Below, one piece after another: positions 7,013-48,888 of a stretch of DNA of 64,000 bases (its first letter is position 1; every line of letters begins with the position of its first letter). Made by a program: the position numbers and the translations under genes. The notes below the pieces were generated by a model. The model was not told the origin of the DNA and made no database searches. It was given only the letters and a program-made list of their open reading frames with translations. Origin of the DNA: Escherichia phage vB-Eco-KMB23; sequence record OR525702.1; one strand, given 5' to 3'.

Positions 7013-8578
7013 ATGACTATCAAAACTAAAGCTGAACTTTTGAACAAATGGAAGCCATTACTGGAAGGTGAAGGTTTACCGGAAATTGCTAATAGCAAAC
7101 AAGCGATTATCGCTAAAATCTTTGAAAACCAGGAAAAAGATTTCCAGACAGCTCCAGAATACAAAGACGAAAAAATCGCTCAGGCGTTCGGTTCTTTCTT
7201 AACAGAAGCTGAAATCGGTGGTGACCACGGTTACAACGCTACTAACATCGCTGCTGGTCAGACTTCTGGCGCAGTAACTCAGATTGGCCCAGCTGTTATG
7301 GGTATGGTACGTCGTGCTATTCCTAACCTGATTGCTTTCGATATTTGCGGTGTTCAGCCGATGAACAGCCCGACTGGCCAGGTATTCGCACTGCGTGCAG
7401 TATATGGTAAAGACCCAATCGCTGCTGGTGCTAAAGAAGCATTCCACCCAATGTATGGTCCAGATGCAATGTTCTCTGGTCAGGGTGCTGCTAAGAAATT
7501 CCCAGCTCTGGCTGCTAGTACACAAACCGTTGTGGGTGATATCTATACTCACTTCTTCCAGGAAACTGGTACTGTGTATCTGCAAGCTTCCGCTGTAGTA
7601 ACAATCGATGCTAGTGCTAACGATGCAACTAAACTGGATGCTGAAATTAAGAAACAAATGGAAGCTGGCGTACTGGTAGAAATCGCTGAAGGTATGGCTA
7701 CTTCTATCGCTGAACTTCAGGAAGGTTTCAACGGTTCTACCGATAACCCATGGAATGAAATGGGCTTCCGTATCGATAAACAAGTTATTGAAGCTAAATC
7801 TCGTCAGCTGAAAGCTGCTTACTCTATCGAATTAGCACAAGACCTCCGCGCTGTTCACGGTATGGATGCTGATGCTGAACTGTCTGGTATTCTGGCTACC
7901 GAAATCATGCTGGAAATCAACCGTGAAGTTGTTGATTGGATTAACTACTCAGCTCAGGTTGGTAAATCTGGTATGACCCTGACTCCGGGTTCTAAAGCTG
8001 GTGTATTTGACTTCCAGGATCCGATTGATATTCGTGGTGCTCGCTGGGCGGGTGAATCCTTTAAAGCTCTGTTGTTCCAGATTGACAAAGAAGCAGTTGA
8101 AATTGCTCGTCAGACCGGTCGTGGTGAAGGTAACTTCATTATCGCTTCCCGTAACGTAGTTAACGTTCTGGCTTCAGTTGATACTGGCATTTCTTATGCT
8201 GCACAGGGTCTGGCTACCGGCTTTAACACTGATACTACCAAGTCAGTATTTGCTGGTGTTCTGGGTGGTAAATACCGTGTATATATCGACCAGTATGCTA
8301 AACAGGATTATTTCACTGTAGGTTATAAAGGTCCGAACGAAATGGATGCTGGTATTTACTATGCTCCATATGTAGCTCTGACTCCGCTGCGTGGTTCCGA
8401 TCCGAAGAACTTCCAACCGGTAATGGGATTCAAAACTCGTTACGGTATCGGTATCAACCCATTTGCGGAATCCGCTGCTCAGGCTCCGGCTTCTCGCATC
8501 CAGAGCGGTATGCCTTCTATTCTGAATAGCCTTGGTAAAAACGCTTACTTCCGCCGTGTATATGTTAAAGGTATCTAA
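7013..8578 (+). CDS. 23: major capsid protein
   Basis: 521 aa; MTIKTKAELLNKWKPLLEGEG matches T4 gp23. Confidence 0.95.
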   Translation: MTIKTKAELLNKWKPLLEGEGLPEIANSKQAIIAKIFENQEKDFQTAPEYKDEKIAQAFGSFLTEAEIGGDHGYNATNIAAGQTSGAVTQIGPAVMGMVRRAIPNLIAFDICGVQPMNSPTGQVFALRAVYGKDPIAAGAKEAFHPMYGPDAMFSGQGAAKKFPALAASTQTVVGDIYTHFFQETGTVYLQASAVVTIDASANDATKLDAEIKKQMEAGVLVEIAEGMATSIAELQEGFNGSTDNPWNEMGFRIDKQVIEAKSRQLKAAYSIELAQDLRAVHGMDADAELSGILATEIMLEINREVVDWINYSAQVGKSGMTLTPGSKAGVFDFQDPIDIRGARWAGESFKALLFQIDKEAVEIARQTGRGEGNFIIASRNVVNVLASVDTGISYAAQGLATGFNTDTTKSVFAGVLGGKYRVYIDQYAKQDYFTVGYKGPNEMDAGIYYAPYVALTPLRGSDPKNFQPVMGFKTRYGIGINPFAESAAQAPASRIQSGMPSILNSLGKNAYFRRVYVKGI

Positions 8579-9951: not shown

Positions 9952-9967
9952 GGGACCTTTCGGTCCC
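9952..9967. terminator. bidirectional hairpin between converging genes 24 and rnlB
   Basis: GGGACC-tttc-GGTCCC flanked by A-run and T-run. Confidence 0.7.
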
Positions 9968-11558: not shown

Positions 11559-12977
11559 TTATGGATAGGTATAGATGATACCAGTTTCTAAAGCAGTTTT
11601 ATGAATGATGTATCCATTACGTGATTCTTGAACATCAACTTCTGGATAGTCTTTCATCATCTTCTGAAGGGTGTAACGATGCAGGTAGTATTTACTATCT
11701 GGATCTTCAGTTTTCCAATCTTTACCTTCTTCGGTCATTTTTTGGATTTCATCCATAACCCACCAACCGCACCAGATATAAGCCGAAGTACGATGTGGAA
11801 GAGGATGAACATAAGGCAATTCACCTTCTGGTTCTGGAGCAACTTTATCAGTTACCTGAACTTGACCTTCTGCTGTGATAGTTTTGCTATCATAATCAGT
11901 AGCAGTAACAGTTGCAGTAACTTCAATAGTTTGACTTCCAATAGATGATGTATCAACAGTGTATACATTAGTTGACCCTTCTACTGGAGAAGAATCTTTC
12001 TTCCATGAATATTCGATTTGTGCTTCTTCTGGAGCATCCGTAACATTAGCAGTAAATGTAGCCGAAGCATCTTGCTGAACGTTAATAGAAGGAGGAGTCA
12101 ATGTAACCTGTGGATTCATTGTCTTCTTATTAACTGTTAATGATACTTCATTAGAAGTAACTGTTTTTGCGTCATAATCTGTTGCTGTTACTTGCGCTAC
12201 GCATTTAATTCTTTTTACTCCACTTGTAGTTGGAGTATAGCTAAATGTAGCAGAAGTCGCTTCACCAATTTGAGAATCATCTACATACCACTGATACGTA
12301 GCAGATGCCCCATCAGGTTGAGAAGCTAAGGCAGCGGTAAATTCAACGGCTGTTCCAATCACTCCAGCTGGAGGACTATCAGGAGTTACTGCCAAGGTAG
12401 TCGTCTGCGTCTTTTTATTAACAGTCAATGATACTTCATTAGAAGTAACGCTTAGTGCATCATAATCTGCCGCAGTTACTTGAGCTACACACTTGATTTT
12501 TTTAACTCCGCTTGTGTCAGGAGTGTAATTGAATGTAGCGTCAGTTGCTTCGTCTACAGGAGAACCGTCAACGTGCCATTGATACGTAGCGTTTGCACCT
12601 GATGGCTGTGAAGCTAAGGCAGCGGTAAATTGAACGGCTGTTCCGATTACTCCTTCCGGAGGACTAGCAGGAGTTACGGCTAATGTAGTTGTCTGTGTCT
12701 TATTTTGAACCGTGATAGTTGTCGTAGTTTCTGCTGTTTCAGGTTCAGATTCTGCAACTTGATTGGTTGCAACTACTTTAATAGTCTTTTGACCGGCAGG
12801 TCCTTTTAGTACATAACTAAAAGTTGCTGACGTTTCTTCCTGTGGAGCGTCGTCTACAGTCCAAGCATATGTAATAGGTCCATCTCCAGTTTGACCACTG
12901 GGTGTAGCAGTAAACTGCTGAGTCTGATCTATAACTCCAGTAGGTGTTTTAGGAGTTATATCAACTGTAAAAGCCAT
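11559..12977 (-). CDS. hoc: outer capsid decoration protein Hoc, five-domain variant
   Basis: 472 aa; termini match T4 Hoc (376 aa) from memory; contains two adjacent, roughly 80 percent identical 96-aa Ig-like domains. Confidence 0.85.
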   Translation of the reverse strand: MAFTVDITPKTPTGVIDQTQQFTATPSGQTGDGPITYAWTVDDAPQEETSATFSYVLKGPAGQKTIKVVATNQVAESEPETAETTTTITVQNKTQTTTLAVTPASPPEGVIGTAVQFTAALASQPSGANATYQWHVDGSPVDEATDATFNYTPDTSGVKKIKCVAQVTAADYDALSVTSNEVSLTVNKKTQTTTLAVTPDSPPAGVIGTAVEFTAALASQPDGASATYQWYVDDSQIGEATSATFSYTPTTSGVKRIKCVAQVTATDYDAKTVTSNEVSLTVNKKTMNPQVTLTPPSINVQQDASATFTANVTDAPEEAQIEYSWKKDSSPVEGSTNVYTVDTSSIGSQTIEVTATVTATDYDSKTITAEGQVQVTDKVAPEPEGELPYVHPLPHRTSAYIWCGWWVMDEIQKMTEEGKDWKTEDPDSKYYLHRYTLQKMMKDYPEVDVQESRNGYIIHKTALETGIIYTYP

Positions 12978-23755: not shown

Positions 23756-23759
23756 CAAC

Positions 23760-23777
23760 GGGGACCTTTCGGTCCCC
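23760..23777. terminator. bidirectional hairpin between gene 54 and the converging minus-strand ORF
   Basis: GGGGACC-tttc-GGTCCCC. Confidence 0.7.
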
Positions 23778-23783
23778 ATATTT

Positions 23784-24074
23784 TTATTTGCGGAATGAAA
23801 TGAAAGCAGAAACTGAAGCAACTAAACTATCTTCAATATAAACTTCAATTTTTACCGGAGCTTCTGACTCAAATTTACCTGTTACTACACCTTGGAAAAT
23901 ACTTTCAGTTTGTTCTGGCTTTGAAAAATTTTCAGAAGGAAAAATTCCGAACTTTTTATCTGTTCCAAAAATTTTAATAAATTCATCGTAAACTGCTTCA
24001 TTAAAAGCATTATCAACAGGAATAACGCCTTCAACTACAAGTTCTTGACCTAAAAAGCGTAAAGAAGATTTCAT
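23784..24074 (-). CDS. hypothetical protein (alt.-3 position)
   Basis: 96-aa ORF, ATG start with SD GAGGA. Confidence 0.6.
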   Translation of the reverse strand: MKSSLRFLGQELVVEGVIPVDNAFNEAVYDEFIKIFGTDKKFGIFPSENFSKPEQTESIFQGVVTGKFESEAPVKIEVYIEDSLVASVSAFISFRK

Positions 24075-24081
24075 TTTGTGT

Positions 24082-24135
24082 TCCTCATGTTATGTCAGTA
24101 AGACTACTATAACACAACACGAGGGACTTGTAAAC
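24082..24135 (-). promoter_or_regulatory. early sigma70-type promoter cassette, copy A (identical to 39407..39460)
   Basis: Minus strand reads GTTTAC, 17 nt, TTATAGT with upstream TG, then SD GAGGA and ATG of the 96-aa ORF. Confidence 0.6.
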
Positions 24136-26192
24136 TACATTTTGAACTTTTTAGACATTCCGTTGATGTTAACCAAAGAAGCTAAGATTTGAGAAACTTC
24201 GTTTTCCTCTTCTTTTGATTCTTCTACAAGGAATTGATTAAATCCAGTCATTGGACGAACTTCACCAGTTTCCATTAAATGGTCGCCATCATATACTGAT
24301 TCTTCTAATTGTTCAGAAGGAGGAACGATTGTGCCTTCGATTAAATACTTGTTATAAGCAGTTTCTTTCATCATGTACGTGCTCACTTTATTAATCTTCA
24401 GCAAAATTCCACGCGGTAAAATAACTTCAGCTTCTGATGGAAATCCTGATAAATGACCTGGAACGATAACTTTGATTCGCTCAGCCCCTTTAATTACCAT
24501 ACCTACGCTAGTTTCAGCATCTTCATTAGCATATGCGGAATGACTACCCATATGCATTAAATCTTCAGCATCAACTGAACCTTCTCCTTCACCAGAAAAT
24601 ACTGCACTGGAATCATCTAAAGCCATATAGTTTTTACCATACTCACCGAAGATATTTGGTTTAAGCGATGTTGATACGAAGTTCTTGAAATAGAACATTT
24701 TATTTTCAATATTATGGCGTAAAGTTTTAAAAGTAACTTCTTGTCCACGATAAAGCGTAGTTCCTGGAGGAAGAACTGATCCTTTGGCGAATGCAGAATC
24801 CAGCGTCTCGATGTGTTTAATAGCTCGTTCCATGTATTCTTCACGAGTAGAATCTGGTTTACCCAAGAGGAACGAGTTCATTTCAACATATGAATCTGCA
24901 CAATAATCTTCAATTACATCGGACTCAGCCTGAGTTAATCCTTTTGGGGGTACTTCAGTACTTGCATATTCATACGCTTGAGAAGCAGACTCATTAATCA
25001 ATTTATAAATGCCATTCATGACAAATTGAATAATAGCTACCTTTTCATCTGGCGTGGCTTTAGAACCTTTAACTAAATCATTGACAATTTTCTTAATAAC
25101 ATCAAAGCTATTAGAAATATTAATGTCAGCAAGATCGCTCAAAATTTTATCGGTTTTATAATCAAAGAATTCTTTATTCTTTAAATATTCCTGAGAACCT
25201 TGATATGTTATATCGCTCTGTAATTTAATAGATGGATCACGTAAACGCGCATGGGCCAATGCAATATGATTTCGGAAGCTTTCTAGTTCATAATCGTTAG
25301 ATTTAAAACGAGAAGCACTCCTCATACCACCGATAGCTCCTTTGCTGAAGTTTGAACCAATCTGAATAACGCCAGAGTTCATTGGTCCTTCTGCTTTATA
25401 TACCGGAACTTTAGATTCAAACTCTTGATATTTCTTAGCGGCGAAGCTATCACCCTGAAGTGAAGCATCAACAGTAGAATATTGAGCTTGTGCTGCTAAT
25501 CGACGACTAATTTTAGTTTTCTGAATAACAGCTTGATCCGTGCGCTTATCATTTTCTAAAGCAATAGAAGCAGCAACAGCAACAGCTTTAGGAACAGCAT
25601 TACCTGTTTTAACATCTACATAAACATCACCAACCTTTGATTCAACTTTTGTGAATAACTCAGTTGAAATAGGAGGTACACCTGGAATGTCTTCTAAATT
25701 GGCATTTTTACGGTAAACCATAATATATGCATACTTTTTATCATAATCCCAGATTTCCTTTAAAAGAACATATCGACCTGCTCCTTTAGTACGTACTAAA
25801 CGGTCAGCAATAACTTGCATTTGACGAGCAGCGCCATTTGTTTTACTTTTTAGTACGCGGAATAGGCATGCGTCAATTTTATACTGTTTCATTGTTTGAA
25901 GAGCAGTATCAAAAACCGCATTAATGACACCAATTGGATTTCCACCCAAGTTTTTAAGTTTAACTAATGATAGTTTCTCATTAACACCTATCATTACGAT
26001 ATGCATCATTTTATCGCCTGGCTTAACGTTTTTATTTGTATCACCGCCAGAGGTGTATGTACAAAATCTAAATCCAGGAAGCACGCTTTCTTCACCAGCT
26101 TGAATAGCAAAAATTTGAGGTATTTTATGCTTAGGATTTAAGTTAACAACCGGCGCCGAAGCGCCGTCAAATAATTCTGTAATAAGTTCCAT
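24135..26192 (-). CDS. Alt-family ADP-ribosyltransferase paralog
   Basis: 685 aa; N-terminus MELITELFD shared with Alt; C-terminal YRG, VSTS and EAEVILPRG motifs (R-S-E ART signature). Confidence 0.8.
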   Translation of the reverse strand: MELITELFDGASAPVVNLNPKHKIPQIFAIQAGEESVLPGFRFCTYTSGGDTNKNVKPGDKMMHIVMIGVNEKLSLVKLKNLGGNPIGVINAVFDTALQTMKQYKIDACLFRVLKSKTNGAARQMQVIADRLVRTKGAGRYVLLKEIWDYDKKYAYIMVYRKNANLEDIPGVPPISTELFTKVESKVGDVYVDVKTGNAVPKAVAVAASIALENDKRTDQAVIQKTKISRRLAAQAQYSTVDASLQGDSFAAKKYQEFESKVPVYKAEGPMNSGVIQIGSNFSKGAIGGMRSASRFKSNDYELESFRNHIALAHARLRDPSIKLQSDITYQGSQEYLKNKEFFDYKTDKILSDLADINISNSFDVIKKIVNDLVKGSKATPDEKVAIIQFVMNGIYKLINESASQAYEYASTEVPPKGLTQAESDVIEDYCADSYVEMNSFLLGKPDSTREEYMERAIKHIETLDSAFAKGSVLPPGTTLYRGQEVTFKTLRHNIENKMFYFKNFVSTSLKPNIFGEYGKNYMALDDSSAVFSGEGEGSVDAEDLMHMGSHSAYANEDAETSVGMVIKGAERIKVIVPGHLSGFPSEAEVILPRGILLKINKVSTYMMKETAYNKYLIEGTIVPPSEQLEESVYDGDHLMETGEVRPMTGFNQFLVEESKEEENEVSQILASLVNINGMSKKFKM

Positions 26193-26195
26193 GAT

Positions 26196-28289
26196 TTATC
26201 CTTGAACGAACTTGTAAGGCATGTTTGTAATATCTATGCAAGACGCAATAATTCCAAGAGATGATTCTACTTTTTGTTTAACATTTGATGAAACAAATGA
26301 TGCAAAATCAACTCTGTCTTCTATTTCAATATCACCTGTCATTGCAACTACTTCACCAGTTTCCATTAGACGATCACCGTCATAAATTACTGATTCGGTG
26401 AGTTCTTCCGTAGTCATAACTTCAGCTTGAATGAGTTTTGTATTATTAGATGTTGTTCCGTCATTATTAGAAGCATCAGTTATTTTATTAACTTTGACCA
26501 TCAATCCGCGTGGTAGAATAACTTCAGCTTCTGTTGCTATTCCGAGACTTCCTGGATATACAACATTAACTTTATGAGCTCCATCAATTGCCCATCCTAT
26601 TTGAACTTTAACGTATTCAGGATTTTCTTTATACGCTCTTATTTCGTTTGGATTAATAGTTATTCCTTCTTCATTTTTATCAACTGTCAATTCATTACGA
26701 GCTTCTGGTTCTAAAAGACCAATACCAGCATGTGTAATTCCAAAACGTCCAAAAATGATAGGAGTTAAAGAAGTAGATACAAAATTTCTGAAATAGAATA
26801 CTTTATTTTTAACTAGTGCTTCGTATATAGGAGCAGTCATACTTTGAGCACGATAAACTGTAATGCCTTCTGGTATACGGTCACCATTTTCAAAAGCTGA
26901 ATCTAAGTTATTTATAGCAGATTCAATTTCTTTTTCACTCATTACATCATATCGTTCTGGATTGTAGCGTCCTAAAAGAAGATTATTGATGTCAGTATAT
27001 CCTGAACCACAATACTCTCTAATACCACGCTTTTGTGATGGAGTATATTTAGAACCATCACGAGCAATAGTAATATCAATCATTGGACCTGCACCAATTC
27101 CAGAAAAGCTATAAATCATTCGTTTGAGGAATTTAGTTTTTGCTGCGTTCCAGGAATTTTTAGTTATTTCTTCCCAGACTTCATCTGACTGCCCTTTACG
27201 AGTTTTATTATGTTTATCAAGCCAATTATCTTTATATTCTTCAAAGAATTGATTAACAGCTGCTGCGTATTTCTCTAAACATTTTATTGAAGTAGTTGGT
27301 TCATTTTTAATCGCATTAAGAATTACATCTTTAATTTTTTCAGAAACTTCATTAACCTCACTTTTTGAAAAGAATTTATAGTCATAATGAAGTTCATCTG
27401 CAGTTCCTTCAGCAATAATTTTTGCTGCTTTAGTTTTAGAAGCCAATGAATTAATTCCAAGTTTCATTTCTTCTGCTTCGGGAATTAAAGGAGCGGTAGC
27501 AGGTTTATTGAAATTAGCTGCGGTAGATTCATACTTCTGGAATAATTCACTTTCAAATCTAGAAGATTCTAATGATTGACTTTGTGCAATTGCTCTACGG
27601 GAAATTTTAACTTTAACGATTACAGCTTGGTCAGAACGTTTATCATTTTCTTGCGCAATAGATGCAGCAATTGCCTCATTTTTAGTTACTTGAGCTCCAG
27701 TATCTTTATTGATATAAACATCACCGACCTTCGATTCAACTTTAGTAAAGAGCTCGGTACTAATTTCCGGAACTCCTGGAATGTCTTCTAGTGATACATT
27801 TTTGCGATGTATAAGAATATATGCATACTTTTTATCGTAATCCCAGAGTTCCTTAAGAAGGACGTATCTGCCACCTGAACGACTGCGGATAAGTCTATCA
27901 GCAATAAGTTGAATTTGACGAGCTTGACCAGCAGTTTTAGACTTAAGAATACGGAGCATACAGGCATCAATTTTATACTGACGCATCGTCTGCATCGCAA
28001 CAGTAAAAACTGAATTGATGTAATTAATTGGGCTTGGACCGAGACCTTTTAATTTAGCAATTGAACCTTTAGCAGTTAATGTAAAAGGAACAATATGCAT
28101 CATTTTATCGCCCATCTTTAAATCGCGATTAGTATCACCTCCAGATGTATAGGTACATAAACGAAAGCCTGGTTGTTCAATTGCGTCATCAACATGAACT
28201 GAAAAAATTTGTGGTATTTTCTTCTTTGGATTTAAGTTTGTAATCGGAAGAGTAGTATCTTCGTCAAATAATTCTGTAATGAGTTCCAT
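26196..28289 (-). CDS. alt: ADP-ribosyltransferase Alt
   Basis: About 697 aa; MELITELFDEDTTLPITNL matches T4 Alt; ART motifs present; second ATG chosen for SD spacing. Confidence 0.85.
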   Translation of the reverse strand: MELITELFDEDTTLPITNLNPKKKIPQIFSVHVDDAIEQPGFRLCTYTSGGDTNRDLKMGDKMMHIVPFTLTAKGSIAKLKGLGPSPINYINSVFTVAMQTMRQYKIDACMLRILKSKTAGQARQIQLIADRLIRSRSGGRYVLLKELWDYDKKYAYILIHRKNVSLEDIPGVPEISTELFTKVESKVGDVYINKDTGAQVTKNEAIAASIAQENDKRSDQAVIVKVKISRRAIAQSQSLESSRFESELFQKYESTAANFNKPATAPLIPEAEEMKLGINSLASKTKAAKIIAEGTADELHYDYKFFSKSEVNEVSEKIKDVILNAIKNEPTTSIKCLEKYAAAVNQFFEEYKDNWLDKHNKTRKGQSDEVWEEITKNSWNAAKTKFLKRMIYSFSGIGAGPMIDITIARDGSKYTPSQKRGIREYCGSGYTDINNLLLGRYNPERYDVMSEKEIESAINNLDSAFENGDRIPEGITVYRAQSMTAPIYEALVKNKVFYFRNFVSTSLTPIIFGRFGITHAGIGLLEPEARNELTVDKNEEGITINPNEIRAYKENPEYVKVQIGWAIDGAHKVNVVYPGSLGIATEAEVILPRGLMVKVNKITDASNNDGTTSNNTKLIQAEVMTTEELTESVIYDGDRLMETGEVVAMTGDIEIEDRVDFASFVSSNVKQKVESSLGIIASCIDITNMPYKFVQG

Positions 28290-28312
28290 CATATCCTCTC
28301 TAGTGTTTATTC

Positions 28313-28320
28313 TATTTATA
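28313..28320 (-). promoter_or_regulatory. late promoter motif TATAAATA for alt
   Basis: Reverse complement of tatttata about 20 bp upstream of alt start. Confidence 0.6.
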
Positions 28321-28343: not shown

Positions 28344-28530
28344 AATAATCTATTGGTAAGAGAGTACGATATATTTCAAACTTTGGACCTTTTTCATAAG
28401 CATCAAATGTTTCTGTGAATTTATTATAAGCATATGCATCTATAAATTCAATCATAATTTGTGATACAGAAGTAGAAACATCTCCACCTTCTTTTTGAGC
28501 AACGACAATTGTTTCTAAGTAAGCTTTCAT
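28342..28530 (-). CDS. hypothetical small protein
   Basis: 62-aa ORF, ATG start overlapping gene 30 stop. Confidence 0.5.
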   Translation of the reverse strand: MKAYLETIVVAQKEGGDVSTSVSQIMIEFIDAYAYNKFTETFDAYEKGPKFEIYRTLLPIDY

Positions 28531-29990
28531 AGACCAGTTACCTCATGAAAATCACCAAATACATCCTCGAATGTATTAGCTTTAGTTTTATCTTCACGTA
28601 AACGAATCGCAATTGGAAGAAATAATTTTACATAATCGGTGCGGCCATCAGATTTTAGCCAACCGTTGCATTCGCACTCTAGAATTTTTCCAATATAATA
28701 ATTTTGGTTTTCCATAATGCGAGTACGGTCAAGTTCATGTGATTTTACACCGGCTTTATCTTTTAAGCCTGAACCAGCATTTACTTTAATTTTTCCACAC
28801 TCTGATTCAAGAATAAATCCACCTGCTTTAGTAGGGTCTTTACGGTGAGGATAAATTCCTACAATTTTTAAATCAACATCAATTACTTCTTTAAATTTAT
28901 AGAGATTTTTTGAACGAGCATTTTCCCACAATCCATCGGTATTTTTGAGAATAATACCTTCAAGACCTTGGTCAATATATTTTTTATAAATTACCTTAGC
29001 TTCATCTAGGTTATTTACTACCTGGTTTTCAATTAAAATTACTTTATCATAGCCTGATGTCATTTGTTCTAGTTTAGAAAAACGTACATCATATTTTAAA
29101 CGAAACGCCGGAAGACCATATATTTCTACTAATGGAACATAGTCCCAGACCTGAAACTTCATGCATTGTGCTTCTTTTTCAGAAATGGTTCCCTTTAAAG
29201 ATTTATTAGCGATTCCATTAGAAGTAGTACGTGATTCAGCTACTTCAGCGAATTCTTTAGCTTTACTAATTTCAGGATAAGCATCAAAAAGAAAATCTAG
29301 GCCTTCTGGTTCCTTTTCAACTTGCTCATGGTATACCAATTCGCCATCAATTAACACACCTTCTGGATGAATCTGGCGGGCTTCAGCGGTCATTTTGATT
29401 AACTCTTCTTTAAGAAGATCTAATCCTAGATATTCATTACCAGCTCGTGATAAAAGACGAACATCATCTAATTCATCACCTCTGACTTCAGCAAAGCACC
29501 GAGCTCCATCAGCTTTTAATTGGGCAAAGGCTGGAAATTTGATATTCTTATTAATGCCTTTTTCATCATAAGAACTTGCCAGCATTTGAGGTTGTTCAGG
29601 AATTAAACCTGGCCAAACTTTGTTTGCAATAGATACTGAAGCACCGCATTCAAGGTCTCGCATCATCACTCGACGCAAAACTTCAACATCATCTTTTTTA
29701 CCATCGGTGATATATCCAATTAATTCCTCAATTGCCGCATTTCCAGTCAATTTCCGAGTAGCTAACGTGAATTCAATGAAGTCAAGCATATCGGTAATAG
29801 TCAGCATCCCAAAACTCTGGGTAGCAATACCGGGTTTAGGCCATTTCTTTATATAATACTGTAACCCACGAGAATAAGTCAGACGATATACTCGTTTGAG
29901 CAATTCATTATCTTTATTCTTTTCAAGAATTGCTTGCTTCTGCTTAGTTGAACCAATAGATGCTATTTCGTTCAGAATTTTAAGAATCAT
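28527..29990 (-). CDS. 30: ATP-dependent DNA ligase
   Basis: 487 aa, matches T4 DNA ligase length and sequence from memory. Confidence 0.9.
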   Translation of the reverse strand: MILKILNEIASIGSTKQKQAILEKNKDNELLKRVYRLTYSRGLQYYIKKWPKPGIATQSFGMLTITDMLDFIEFTLATRKLTGNAAIEELIGYITDGKKDDVEVLRRVMMRDLECGASVSIANKVWPGLIPEQPQMLASSYDEKGINKNIKFPAFAQLKADGARCFAEVRGDELDDVRLLSRAGNEYLGLDLLKEELIKMTAEARQIHPEGVLIDGELVYHEQVEKEPEGLDFLFDAYPEISKAKEFAEVAESRTTSNGIANKSLKGTISEKEAQCMKFQVWDYVPLVEIYGLPAFRLKYDVRFSKLEQMTSGYDKVILIENQVVNNLDEAKVIYKKYIDQGLEGIILKNTDGLWENARSKNLYKFKEVIDVDLKIVGIYPHRKDPTKAGGFILESECGKIKVNAGSGLKDKAGVKSHELDRTRIMENQNYYIGKILECECNGWLKSDGRTDYVKLFLPIAIRLREDKTKANTFEDVFGDFHEVTGL

Positions 29991-33042: not shown

Positions 33043-33100
33043 CCTTTGTTTGTGTAAGATAATACTATCACAAAGGAACCGTACTGTAAACAACTTTGTG
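33043..33100 (-). promoter_or_regulatory. early promoter with inverted repeats (PeSL-like cassette)
   Basis: GTTTAC (rc of 33086-33091) enclosed by CACAAAG/CTTTGTG repeat; AT-rich -10 downstream. Confidence 0.5.
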
Positions 33101-33120
33101 CAATCTTTGGAAAATAAAAA

Positions 33121-33140
33121 AGGACTCCCGAAGGAGTCCT
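33121..33140 (-). terminator. hairpin terminator
   Basis: AGGACTCC-cgaa-GGAGTCCT. Confidence 0.65.
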
Positions 33141-34006: not shown

Positions 34007-34342
34007 TCACTTATAAAGACATGGAATAGCTTTATAGTGACAAGTAACGAATTTTTGTTTAATTTCTTTTGGCTGTTTAAGACCCAGAGCTACAAAAGGA
34101 TGCGGAACATTTCGAATTTGACCAACTGGAAGAGAAGTCAAATCACCAACTTCGCAGAAACCTTCAGGAACATCAGGACCGACAGAGTGAACTACACACA
34201 GTTCAGGAACTTCACCTTGAACACGTTTACCGATAATAAGTCCTGATTCTGTAACTTCTTCATCACCAGCCTGTGCAGGTTCAGAAACTAAAATAACATA
34301 TTCACCGACAGCACGAATTGGTAGCTGTTGTACTTCAGACAT
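34007..34342 (-). CDS. 31: head assembly co-chaperonin (GroES-like)
   Basis: 111 aa, matches T4 gp31. Confidence 0.9.
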
Positions 34343-36104: not shown

Positions 36105-36153
36105 CATTTGTTTTGGTAGAGCTATAATATCACAACTCTACCATAAAGTAAAC
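36105..36153 (-). promoter_or_regulatory. early promoter with embedded stem-loop (PeSL-like cassette)
   Basis: GTTTAC, then 7-bp inverted repeat GGTAGAG/CTCTACC bracketing the TG-extended -10 (TATTAT). Confidence 0.55.
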
Positions 36154-38555: not shown

Positions 38556-38905
38556 TTAGAAAGGTCCTGGATGTCTTCTGCGAACTTGTTGAAGGAGTTG
38601 TTGATTTGTTTTTCAACCAATCCTGGCTTATGAGCCACCACATCCGCCTTCTTTGCATCTTTGCGCAGTTTTTCATTTTCACGCTCAATAGCAGCAATTG
38701 CCTCACGATTTTTATTATTCATCGCATCAATATAATTATACTGAATTCGCAAATTATTTAATGCTAAGGCGTTTTCATTGGCCGTTTTTGTAATTTCAGT
38801 AACCGATGTTTCTAATCTTTCTACCTTATTTTTTAAAATAATAGATGTTCCGCCAAATACTATTACAAGTAATAGCAAACCTGCTGTCGTATTACTTAAT
38901 TGCAT
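38552..38905 (-). CDS. predicted membrane-anchored coiled-coil protein
   Basis: 117 aa; N-terminal hydrophobic helix LLLLVIVFGG. Confidence 0.55.
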   Translation of the reverse strand: MQLSNTTAGLLLLVIVFGGTSIILKNKVERLETSVTEITKTANENALALNNLRIQYNYIDAMNNKNREAIAAIERENEKLRKDAKKADVVAHKPGLVEKQINNSFNKFAEDIQDLSK

Positions 38906-39399
38906 AAAGTTTTAATAACCTCTATAATATCGTCTTGAGAAAGACCGTTAATTAAAATATGATGTTCCGCCGGAGATTTAGAAATTTTAAAGCATGCCGC
39001 AACATCTTCTGCCATATCCGATGCGCTACGATTTGGATTACTAATTCCAAGACGATGTTTTCCCGTTAAAGGATTAACGATGATATAGCATTTACAGCTA
39101 TTGATATGAACATTAGGTTGAGTCTGATTAATGAATACATCACAATCATATTTCGCAAGCTGATTTTCTAAAAAGACTTTCATCTCCTCAACCGCATCAG
39201 GAAGCATATCACGGGCTTGCTCAAGACGACGATTTCGATATTCTTTAATGGTCGTTTTCCGCTTGACTTGCTTAGCTAAATCTTTCTTAAGATCGGTGAT
39301 ATATCCAACTCGACGATTTCCTTTAAATACAGAAATCCCATCTGTAGTATCACCGTATGCTTCAACGACCATTTCAGTAGTAATAAGCTGCAAATCCAT
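38896..39399 (-). CDS. alc: Alc, inhibitor of host transcription elongation
   Basis: 167 aa from second ATG, matches T4 Alc. Confidence 0.85.
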   Translation of the reverse strand: MDLQLITTEMVVEAYGDTTDGISVFKGNRRVGYITDLKKDLAKQVKRKTTIKEYRNRRLEQARDMLPDAVEEMKVFLENQLAKYDCDVFINQTQPNVHINSCKCYIIVNPLTGKHRLGISNPNRSASDMAEDVAACFKISKSPAEHHILINGLSQDDIIEVIKTLCN

Positions 39400-39406
39400 C
39401 ATAAAG

Positions 39407-39460
39407 TCCTCATGTTATGTCAGTAAGACTACTATAACACAACACGAGGGACTTGTAAAC
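39407..39460 (-). promoter_or_regulatory. early sigma70-type promoter cassette, copy B (identical to 24082..24135)
   Basis: 54/54 identity with copy A; drives alc. Confidence 0.6.
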
Positions 39461-39463
39461 AGC

Positions 39464-41051
<1,588 letters not shown>

Positions 41052-48766: not shown

Positions 48767-48810
48767 ATTGTTTTCCTCTTTAATCATCAGCAGTATTGCC
48801 GATAGTTGTA

Positions 48811-48839
48811 TAGTACCATGGAAGAACAAGGATGTAAAC
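48811..48839 (-). promoter_or_regulatory. early sigma70-type promoter
   Basis: GTTTAC, 17 nt, TG-extended -10 TACTAT on minus strand. Confidence 0.5.
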
Positions 48840-48869
48840 AGTTTTGTGAAAAATTTTTAAAATAAAAAA

Positions 48870-48888
48870 GGGGACCTCTAGGGTCCCC
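48870..48888 (-). terminator. gene 32 terminator hairpin
   Basis: GGGGACC-tctag-GGTCCCC downstream of gene 32 stop. Confidence 0.65.

Follow-up and report, generated by a model that had tools for sequence, protein, structure and literature searches.

A repeated early-promoter cassette in a T4-like phage whose promoter spacer is predicted to mask the Shine–Dalgarno sequence

Why would a phage genome carry the same 54 nucleotides, without a single difference, at two sites about 15 kb apart? We addressed this question in a 64,000-nt stretch of Escherichia phage vB-Eco-KMB23 (record OR525702.1; hereafter the window), a Tequatrovirus sequence ~97–98% identical to many T4-group phages. As proposed by a first inspection of the letters and open reading frames (ORFs) of this DNA (hereafter the sequence-only reading), a repeat search of the window found a direct repeat (family D7) at 24082–24135 and 39407–39460, with 100% identity and a distance of 15,325 nt. 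No further copy occurs in the window at ≤3 mismatches, and none is expected in 100 shuffles; the repeat is real and non-random. Both copies are read on the minus strand and stand directly before a 96-aa ORF, here identified as alt.-3 (23784–24074), and before alc (38896–39402), again as first described. Copy 1 is located between the stop codon of an alt-like ORF (TAG, 24137–24135) and the alt.-3 ATG (24074), and copy 2 separates the end of rnlA (stop at 39464) from the alc start codon (39402). The shared sequence breaks off abruptly at GTTTAC upstream and at GAGGA downstream, with unrelated flanks beyond. At copy 1, the G of the alt-like TAG is also the G of GTTTAC, i.e., the stop codon overlaps the −35 element.

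The repeat is widely distributed. The 54-mer was found in 448 phage records at 740 places, with a maximum of two places per record, so that neither the window nor the records hold a crowd of mismatched or additional copies. Phage T4 has both copies, upstream of alt.-3 and alc, differing by one base (53/54), and on this comparison the cassette pair is a conserved trait of the best-studied phage, not an oddity of one genome. A −35/−10-anchored pattern matched 77 IMG/VR loci, only 8 of which were true relatives, the rest being chance matches or other promoters. A scan of metagenomes gave just 8 loci and added little new variation.

What the cassette encodes at its ends is an early promoter and a Shine–Dalgarno sequence (SD). 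In each copy, a promoter scan (10/12 consensus matches) identified a G followed by the −35 hexamer TTTACA, a 17-nt spacer, and an extended −10 element, TGtTATAGT, with the SD GAGGA placed 7 nt before the ATG, which confirms the order GTTTAC, 17 nt, TTATAGT, and GAGGA first read from the sequence. The −35 hexamer lies at 24129–24134 in copy 1 (preceded by the G at 24135) and at 39454–39459 in copy 2, and the extended −10 element at 24106–24114 and 39431–39439, respectively. Taking the seventh nucleotide after the −10, transcription is predicted to start at A 24099 and A 39424. Upstream of the −35, the alc copy is A/T-rich and carries AAAAATTATAAAAAATTTAT, while AT-richness is only moderate at the alt.-3 copy, owing to the coding sequence next to it. 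In the time-resolved transcriptome and proteome of T4, both alt.-3 and alc are classified as early RNA and early protein, while their upstream neighbors differ: alt, which immediately precedes alt.-3, is late, and rnlA, which precedes alc, has early RNA but late protein (PMC9697503). An early gene directly downstream of a late one needs its own early promoter, and the cassette supplies it to alt.-3. Taken together, the sigma-70 motifs and the T4 expression class of both genes support the view that these are early promoter cassettes with an SD.

A promoter alone does not account for the degree of identity. [quoted passage not shown] Yet T4 early-type promoter cassettes share on average only 26.1 ± 5.7 of 54 positions with one another, while the alc/alt.-3 pair shares 53 in T4 and 54 in the window, in line with the original suspicion that the identity exceeds what a promoter consensus would require. 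The main reason for this additional constraint is a feature that the sequence-only reading missed, namely a hairpin in which the promoter spacer pairs with the SD.

On the sense strand, the region between the −35 and the SD is self-complementary, with CCCUCGUGUUGUGUU pairing with GACAUAACAUGAGG. The promoter spacer forms the 5′ arm, the −10 spans the apex of the stem and the loop, and the SD is part of the 3′ arm. In copy 1, the 5′ (anti-SD) arm at 24111–24125 lies inside the −35/−10 spacer, the loop at 24097–24110 holds most of the −10 hexamer along with the predicted start (A 24099), and the 3′ arm at 24082–24096 includes the SD at 24082–24086. In copy 2, the corresponding elements are the 5′ arm at 39436–39454 (a core at 39436–39450 extended by AAGU in the alc context), the loop at 39422–39435 with the predicted start (A 39424), and the 3′ arm at 39404–39421, which includes the SD at 39407–39411 and an alc-specific extension. 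The predicted stem comprises 14 pairs and a 4-bp apical helix at the alt.-3 copy, and 22 pairs, including three G-U pairs, in the alc context. Predicted folding energies were −23.3 kcal/mol for copy 1 (z = −3.66 for the sense strand vs −2.03 for the antisense strand) and −30.3 kcal/mol for copy 2 (z = −4.22); in a direct comparison of strands (−24.4 vs −15.4), the three G-U pairs weaken the antisense fold. All four SD nucleotides of copy 1 are paired with the spacer in the minimum free energy structure. A comparison of the cassette RNA to Rfam yielded no match beyond a single hit to a plant miRNA model attributable to chance (E = 0.78; 16.8 bits against a gathering score of 135). Cleavage by RegB, which targets GGAG, was considered as a cause of the conservation and rejected, the cassette SD being GAGGA without GGAG.

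How could such a hairpin act? We propose that each copy is a composite cassette of the early-promoter/stem-loop (PeSL) type, in which a strong sigma-70 early promoter (TTTACA-17-TGtTATAGT) drives the downstream gene and its spacer doubles as an anti-SD arm that gates translation from read-through RNA, the alc copy being ancestral; we assign this reading a probability of roughly 60%. In RNA reading through from alt or rnlA, the spacer would pair with the leader over 14–22 bp and bury the SD (GAGG), and the downstream gene would be poorly translated. Transcripts from the cassette's own promoter would instead begin within the hairpin loop, lack the 5′ arm, and leave the SD free. Since the 5′ arm is the −35/−10 spacer, it lies upstream of any start made by this promoter, whatever the exact position of that start. 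Translation of alc, and probably of alt.-3, would thus be tied to the gene's own immediate-early promoter. At alc, the SD is predicted to be unpaired with a probability of 0.03 in read-through RNA vs 0.76 in promoter-initiated RNA; at alt.-3, the predicted value in read-through RNA is 0.18.

Potential sources of read-through transcripts are found upstream of both copies. Directly upstream of copy 1 is an Alt-like ADP-ribosyltransferase gene (24135–26192, minus strand; Pfam ADPrib_exo_Tox), and late read-through toward alt.-3 would be expected because the late-promoter motif TATAAATA precedes alt (28313–28320, minus strand, 20 nt upstream of the alt start codon in a motif search). This placement fits Alt being made late and packaged into the virion, with its gene on the “early” strand. 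Directly upstream of copy 2 is rnlA (RNA ligase 1; 39464–40588, minus strand; identified by BLAST to T4 rnlA), and a terminator scan found no terminator between rnlA and alc. No TATAAATA motif was found on the minus strand between 34006 and 42500, i.e., upstream of rnlA, which leaves early or middle transcripts as the source of read-through into alc.

The closest functional parallel is provided by the T4 genes e, soc, 49, and I-TevI, in which long transcripts bury the SD or AUG in a helix while short transcripts from an internal promoter lack the 5′ arm and are translated (PMC3014915). The cassette shares with them the predicted SD pairing in upstream-initiated RNA and own transcripts without the 5′ arm. 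The internal promoter of these genes is late (TATAAATA), however, while that of the cassette is an immediate-early sigma-70 promoter whose spacer itself is the 5′ arm. The direction of control would also be reversed: masking in the known cases blocks early translation of a late protein, and the cassette would instead keep an early protein from being translated later or from read-through RNA. At alc and alt.-3, masking is a prediction from sequence. We thus consider that the cassette would work like this class without being a strict member, as it has no late promoter inside.

If the pairing matters, it should be visible across more distant relatives, and the alc locus offers this comparison. 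We compared the rnlA–alc spacers of 14 further T4-like phages, with Alc protein identities of 31–60%. A promoter-in-hairpin design was found at alc in eight genera besides Tequatrovirus (Gelderland-, Karam-, Jiaoda-, Braga-, Roskilde-, Dhaka-, and Winklervirus, and Kanagawavirus CIP9), and hence in at least nine: in these eight, GTTTACA is immediately followed by an anti-SD arm that forms 9–15 bp with an SD-containing 3′ arm, the −10 being in the loop. Stem sequences differ between genera, and the 3′ arm lies at variable distances from the −10, while SD pairing is kept, with all four SD nucleotides paired with the spacer in each of the 12 masking alc sequences except CIP9 (3/4). Cognate arms also fit each other far better than non-cognate ones (−16.6 vs −8.9 kcal/mol; 0/100,000 permutations), and this still held when three promoter-bearing lineages that do not mask the SD were added (−14.1 vs −7.8 kcal/mol; 0/200,000 permutations). 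Applied to a MAFFT alignment, RNAalifold saw no more than the 4-bp anti-SD/SD core, since the register of the stems shifts from genus to genus; it was replaced by the test of cognate vs non-cognate arms and by a count of pairs in the named structure. On the plain MAFFT alignment, this count gave 76.3% paired cells vs 66.0% after shuffling (0/500), with 8 of 13 pairs changed on both sides, and slid registers reached 41–62%. Within Tequatrovirus, every substitution in the 5′ arm keeps pairing (C to U opposite G, or G to A at a G-U pair), the 3′ arm and SD are invariant, and half of the variable positions fall in the 14-nt loop. As a separate observation, alc of Gaprivervirus, which lacks the promoter-hairpin cassette, is preceded by a short ORF resembling the alc N-terminus (alcb/alca), i.e., a partial tandem duplication, seen in Shigella phage SP18 (457–1207 of the retrieved piece) and vB_EcoM_RZ (24–807 of the retrieved piece).

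These patterns bear on two other accounts of the repeat. The first is that the cassette is merely a strong early promoter, recently duplicated, with an incidental hairpin and an identity that reflects short time. Tequatrovirus genomes are ~97% identical, so the 54-nt identity alone is no evidence of selection, and the two copies drift independently within genomes (see below). Recent duplication does not explain, however, why at least nine genera have the promoter-in-hairpin design at alc, built from different sequences with compensatory changes, nor why T4 early promoters show more spacer–SD pairing than non-cognate combinations do, and we regard this account as improbable. The second is that the inverted repeat acts in DNA, by forming a cruciform, binding a protein, or easing promoter melting. 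The stems do flank or overlap the −10, where the strands open, and in several genera they are fully Watson–Crick, which makes the two strands indistinguishable. In Tequatrovirus, however, three pairs of the stem are G-U, which correspond to C-A mismatches in DNA and on the opposite strand. In addition, the SD, an RNA-level signal, invariably forms the 3′ arm, and SD pairing survives the variable distance between the −10 and the 3′ arm; a DNA-level role thus seems very unlikely, more so even than simple duplication.

Is the arrangement restricted to the two repeat copies? We surveyed the early-type promoters of T4 (AF158101) over ~130 kb, retaining 34 with an SD and start codon within 70 nt. 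In seven of these (~20%), namely those of motB.2, nrdC.8, regB, denV, alt.-3, alc, and ndd.4, all four SD nucleotides are paired to the promoter's own spacer in a duplex of −17 kcal/mol or stronger. Excluding the two cassette copies, these are minus-strand promoters with the G of the −35 at 8218 (motB.2), 53943 (nrdC.8), 62797 (regB), 65413 (denV), and 166807 (ndd.4), and with duplexes of −17.8 to −21.5 kcal/mol. Non-cognate combinations reached −17 kcal/mol in only 8 of 1122 cases, mostly between related cassettes (0/100,000 permutations). On these models, the anti-SD spacer is a recurrent T4 design. It is conceivable, though we lean against it, that anti-SD-in-spacer promoters constitute a portable gate allowing translation only from a gene's own promoter, which about one-fifth of T4 early promoters would use, which compensatory change would have kept at alc in at least nine genera, and which could be transplanted as a unit. 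Weaker spacer–SD cases were also noted on the T4 minus strand, with the −35 G at 130310, 58780, 27080, and 70696.

Near-duplicate promoter cassettes recur in T4, since other pairs share 49/54 and 46/54 positions, the alc/alt.-3 pair being the extreme at 53. A second family of near-identical early promoters, GTTCTTCC(A/G)TGGTACTATACAACTATCAACTAC, was seen in T4 at 27080, 70696, 53943, and 166807, and in the window at 48839. Within this family, the imm.1 and e.8 cassettes have up to 49/54 positions in common, and another repeat family of the window (D9; 33062–33123 and 48810–48871) belongs with it.

Which known kind of element does the cassette represent? PeSL cassettes have been described between co-directional early ORFs as a sigma-70-like early promoter, a stem-loop with G-T/G-U pairs, an SD, and an ATG (Arbiol 2010, PMC2839356; Comeau 2014, PMC4122927). 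They are repeated within genomes, occur near indels, and have been proposed to be linkers for homologous exchange (PMC2839356, PMC4122927), with stems in RB49 and phi1 located between the −35 and −10 or overlapping the −10 (PMC2839356). The cassette is of this known kind, PeSL or T4 early promoter cassette, and is already present in T4. Both copies sit between co-directional genes with SD and ATG at the 3′ end, and TTTACA-17-TATAGT with TGn fits the PST/T4 consensus TTTACW-N17-TAYWAT, but with G instead of A at the last-but-one position. The stem is stable (−23 to −30 kcal/mol, z = −3.7 to −4.2) and placed as in RB49/phi1. As for repetition and exchange, there are only two copies and the interval between them is not exchanged; the cassette itself appears to have been transplanted, and a T4 deletion ends ~20 nt upstream of copy 1. 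Differences are also clear: the PST/T4 stem was placed by these authors just upstream of the promoter, while the stem here spans the spacer to the SD; it has no U-tract, its conserved feature being the anti-SD/SD pairing; and the copies are 15 kb apart across essential genes. What is new in detail, and well supported computationally, is the spacer as anti-SD arm, ancestral at alc and transplanted to alt.-3. The two PeSL papers (PMC2839356, PMC4122927) read the stem as a terminator or attenuator, without mention of translation or ribosomes. SD masking by an early promoter is likewise absent from two 2010 reviews of T4 (PMC3014915, PMC2988021), although an earlier description elsewhere is possible.

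The PeSL literature also suggests the main competing explanation, in which the stem-loop is primarily a transcription attenuator or insulator, or an element for RNA 3′-end formation, processing, or stability, and SD pairing is a by-product of fitting a stable stem into a very short intergenic space. Terminator/attenuator activity has been reported for an RB49 PeSL stem, and such stems are placed as here (Arbiol 2010, PMC2839356); the alc copy is followed by UUUAU, and two other window promoters (−35 G at 36153 and 32699) have significant stems (z = −4.5 and −4.2) that leave the SD free. However, a consistent U-tract is missing, the stem being followed by AACACAAAA at the alt.-3 copy and by AAAACG, UAUUGAAA, or UUAACA in other genera; the terminator scan found no intrinsic terminator at either copy; and the element kept across genera is the anti-SD/SD pairing directly after GTTTACA. 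We consider attenuation as the primary function unlikely, if the most serious of the alternatives, and it is compatible with translational gating, since read-through RNA left untranslated would likewise be open to Rho. The two stems just mentioned belong to a set of four early-type promoters on the window's minus strand (−35 G at 36153, 32699, 47849, and 52139) with 6–8 bp inverted repeats, one arm in the −35/−10 spacer and the other just after the −10 (e.g., GGTAGAG..TATTAT..CTCTACC).

Several observations count against the gating model. As the stems at 36153 and 32699 miss the SD, the role of such hairpins may be more basic, with SD masking secondary. Five sampled alc contexts do not have the design (Mosigvirus, Kanagawavirus KLB31, Biquartavirus, and two Gapriverviruses), other genera run alt.-3 without SD masking, and the G-U strand asymmetry is strong only in Tequatrovirus. 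At alt.-3, the accessibility contrast is weak, since the promoter-initiated leader is itself predicted to form a local 5-bp helix over the SD. The lineages of the first covariation test were picked after their folds had been seen, a bias mitigated by the test that included non-masking lineages. Finally, the transcription start, the structure, and the translational effect are model predictions or inferences at both sites.

Given two copies, which one came first? In seven phages of five other genera (two Karamvirus, two Dhakavirus, Gaprivervirus, Mosigvirus, and Marfavirus), alt.-3 is preceded by a different promoter, similar among these phages, with a mini-hairpin in the spacer (CAC-AAGGA-GTG) and a free SD. 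Their alt.-3 flanks are homologous to those of Tequatrovirus (on the left ..TTCAAAATGTAG followed by GTTTACAA, also given as ..TTCAAAATGTAGTTTACAA; on the right ACATGAGGA.AACAAAATGAAATC). A different conserved promoter within homologous flanks indicates that the alc-type cassette at alt.-3 is derived. The alt.-3 copy would thus be a Tequatrovirus-specific replacement copied from alc, where direction and mechanism are deduced from the sequence comparison. In this scenario, a ~37-nt core between GTTTACAAG and ACATGAGGA would have been overwritten from the alc cassette in a Tequatrovirus ancestor, through ectopic recombination or gene conversion, and the patch would end in motifs already common to both cassettes (GTTTACAAG on the left and ACATGAGGA on the right). 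The persistence of the identity may reflect fairly recent copying along with overlapping constraints from promoter, stem, and SD.

Concerted evolution of the two copies was considered and rejected: across five Tequatrovirus genomes, the copies differ within a genome at 0, 1, 4, 5, and 6 positions, by independent substitutions. This independent divergence implies no ongoing homogenization, and the perfect identity in the window is therefore the ancestral state retained in both copies. A possible swap in the opposite direction was noted in Mosigvirus PhAPEC2, in which the alc promoter belongs to the CAC-AAGGA-GTG type and is similar to that genome's own alt.-3 promoter; this likeness suggests a cassette exchange from alt.-3 to alc, as a lead only.

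Direct repeats could also act on the DNA between them, and the sequence-only reading had suggested deletion or module exchange of the intervening early region. In this interpretation, related to the PeSL mini-circle model, the repeats are substrates for deleting, duplicating, or exchanging the 15-kb interval. T4 recombination can use homology of <50 bp, and PeSL–PeSL crossovers and mini-circles have been shown in RB49/phi1 (PMC2839356). The alt.-3 copy would itself be the product of an ectopic cassette exchange, and the T4 deletion of the second alt gene ends close to copy 1. The interval, however, contains gene 30 (DNA ligase, 28527–29990) and gene 31 (co-chaperonin, 34007–34342), both essential in T4, along with rIII, cd, pseT, and spanins, and a mini-circle or deletion mechanism therefore cannot give viable products. 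A 15.3-kb tandem duplication, for its part, would exceed the headful slack of T4. We built the chimeric junctions expected from unequal crossing-over and searched them against all phage records: neither the deletion junction (rnlA–cassette–alt.-3) nor the duplication junction (alt–cassette–alc) was present in any of 499 Tequatrovirus records, essentially all of which contain both parental junctions. The proposed exchange of the interval is thus not supported and appears improbable, to about the same degree as duplication without function. Recombination seems to have done something smaller, copying the cassette itself from the alc site to the alt.-3 site. In practical terms the outcome is negative, as the repeats offer no route to a viable deletion of the interval.

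T4 serves as the reference for how phage genes are regulated, and its PeSLs have until now been treated as terminators and recombination linkers. If the gating model is correct, a simple cis rule would explain why synthesis of Alc, RegB, DenV, Alt.-3, and others is confined to the first minutes of infection despite middle or late read-through from upstream, mirroring the late-gene cases e, soc, 49, and I-TevI, and the gate would contribute to the distinction between immediate-early and delayed-early expression in T4. Untranslated read-through RNA could then be exposed to Rho or nucleases, which would explain the “terminator/attenuator” behavior of PeSLs without a canonical terminator. A natural exchange of promoters between two loci, broken at the −35 and SD motifs that they have in common, would be concrete evidence of cassette-level exchange in T-even genomes, and the combination of promoter, insulator, and ribosome-binding site in 54 nt would represent a compact design for synthetic phage engineering.

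The genes served by the cassettes and their surroundings were annotated as follows. The alt.-3 product (96 aa; DUF5498, Pfam PF17602, E = 3e-63) is 96% identical to T4 alt.-3, and its unit ends at a bidirectional hairpin resembling an intrinsic terminator, facing gene 54 (23758–23779; scan of both strands). A GGGACCTTTCGGTCCC terminator-like hairpin occurs twice in the window, here and at 9952–9967 (family D19). The alc product, an inhibitor of host transcription, matches Pfam PF17527 (E = 8.5e-91), and the start annotated in T4 corresponds to the second ATG (39399). Upstream of copy 1, the window has two full-length tandem Alt-like paralogs (24135–26192 and 26196–28292), which account for repeat families D2, D3, D8, and D15 with a spacing of ~2094; T4 keeps only fragments of the second (alt.-1 and alt.-2), the deletion endpoint being the one noted above near copy 1. 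Elsewhere, the window includes a tandem direct repeat of 127 nt in two copies at 1629–1882 (99% identical, family D4) and a tandem 288-nt repeat in two copies at 12121–12696 (78% identical, family D1), the latter probably reflecting repeated protein domains.

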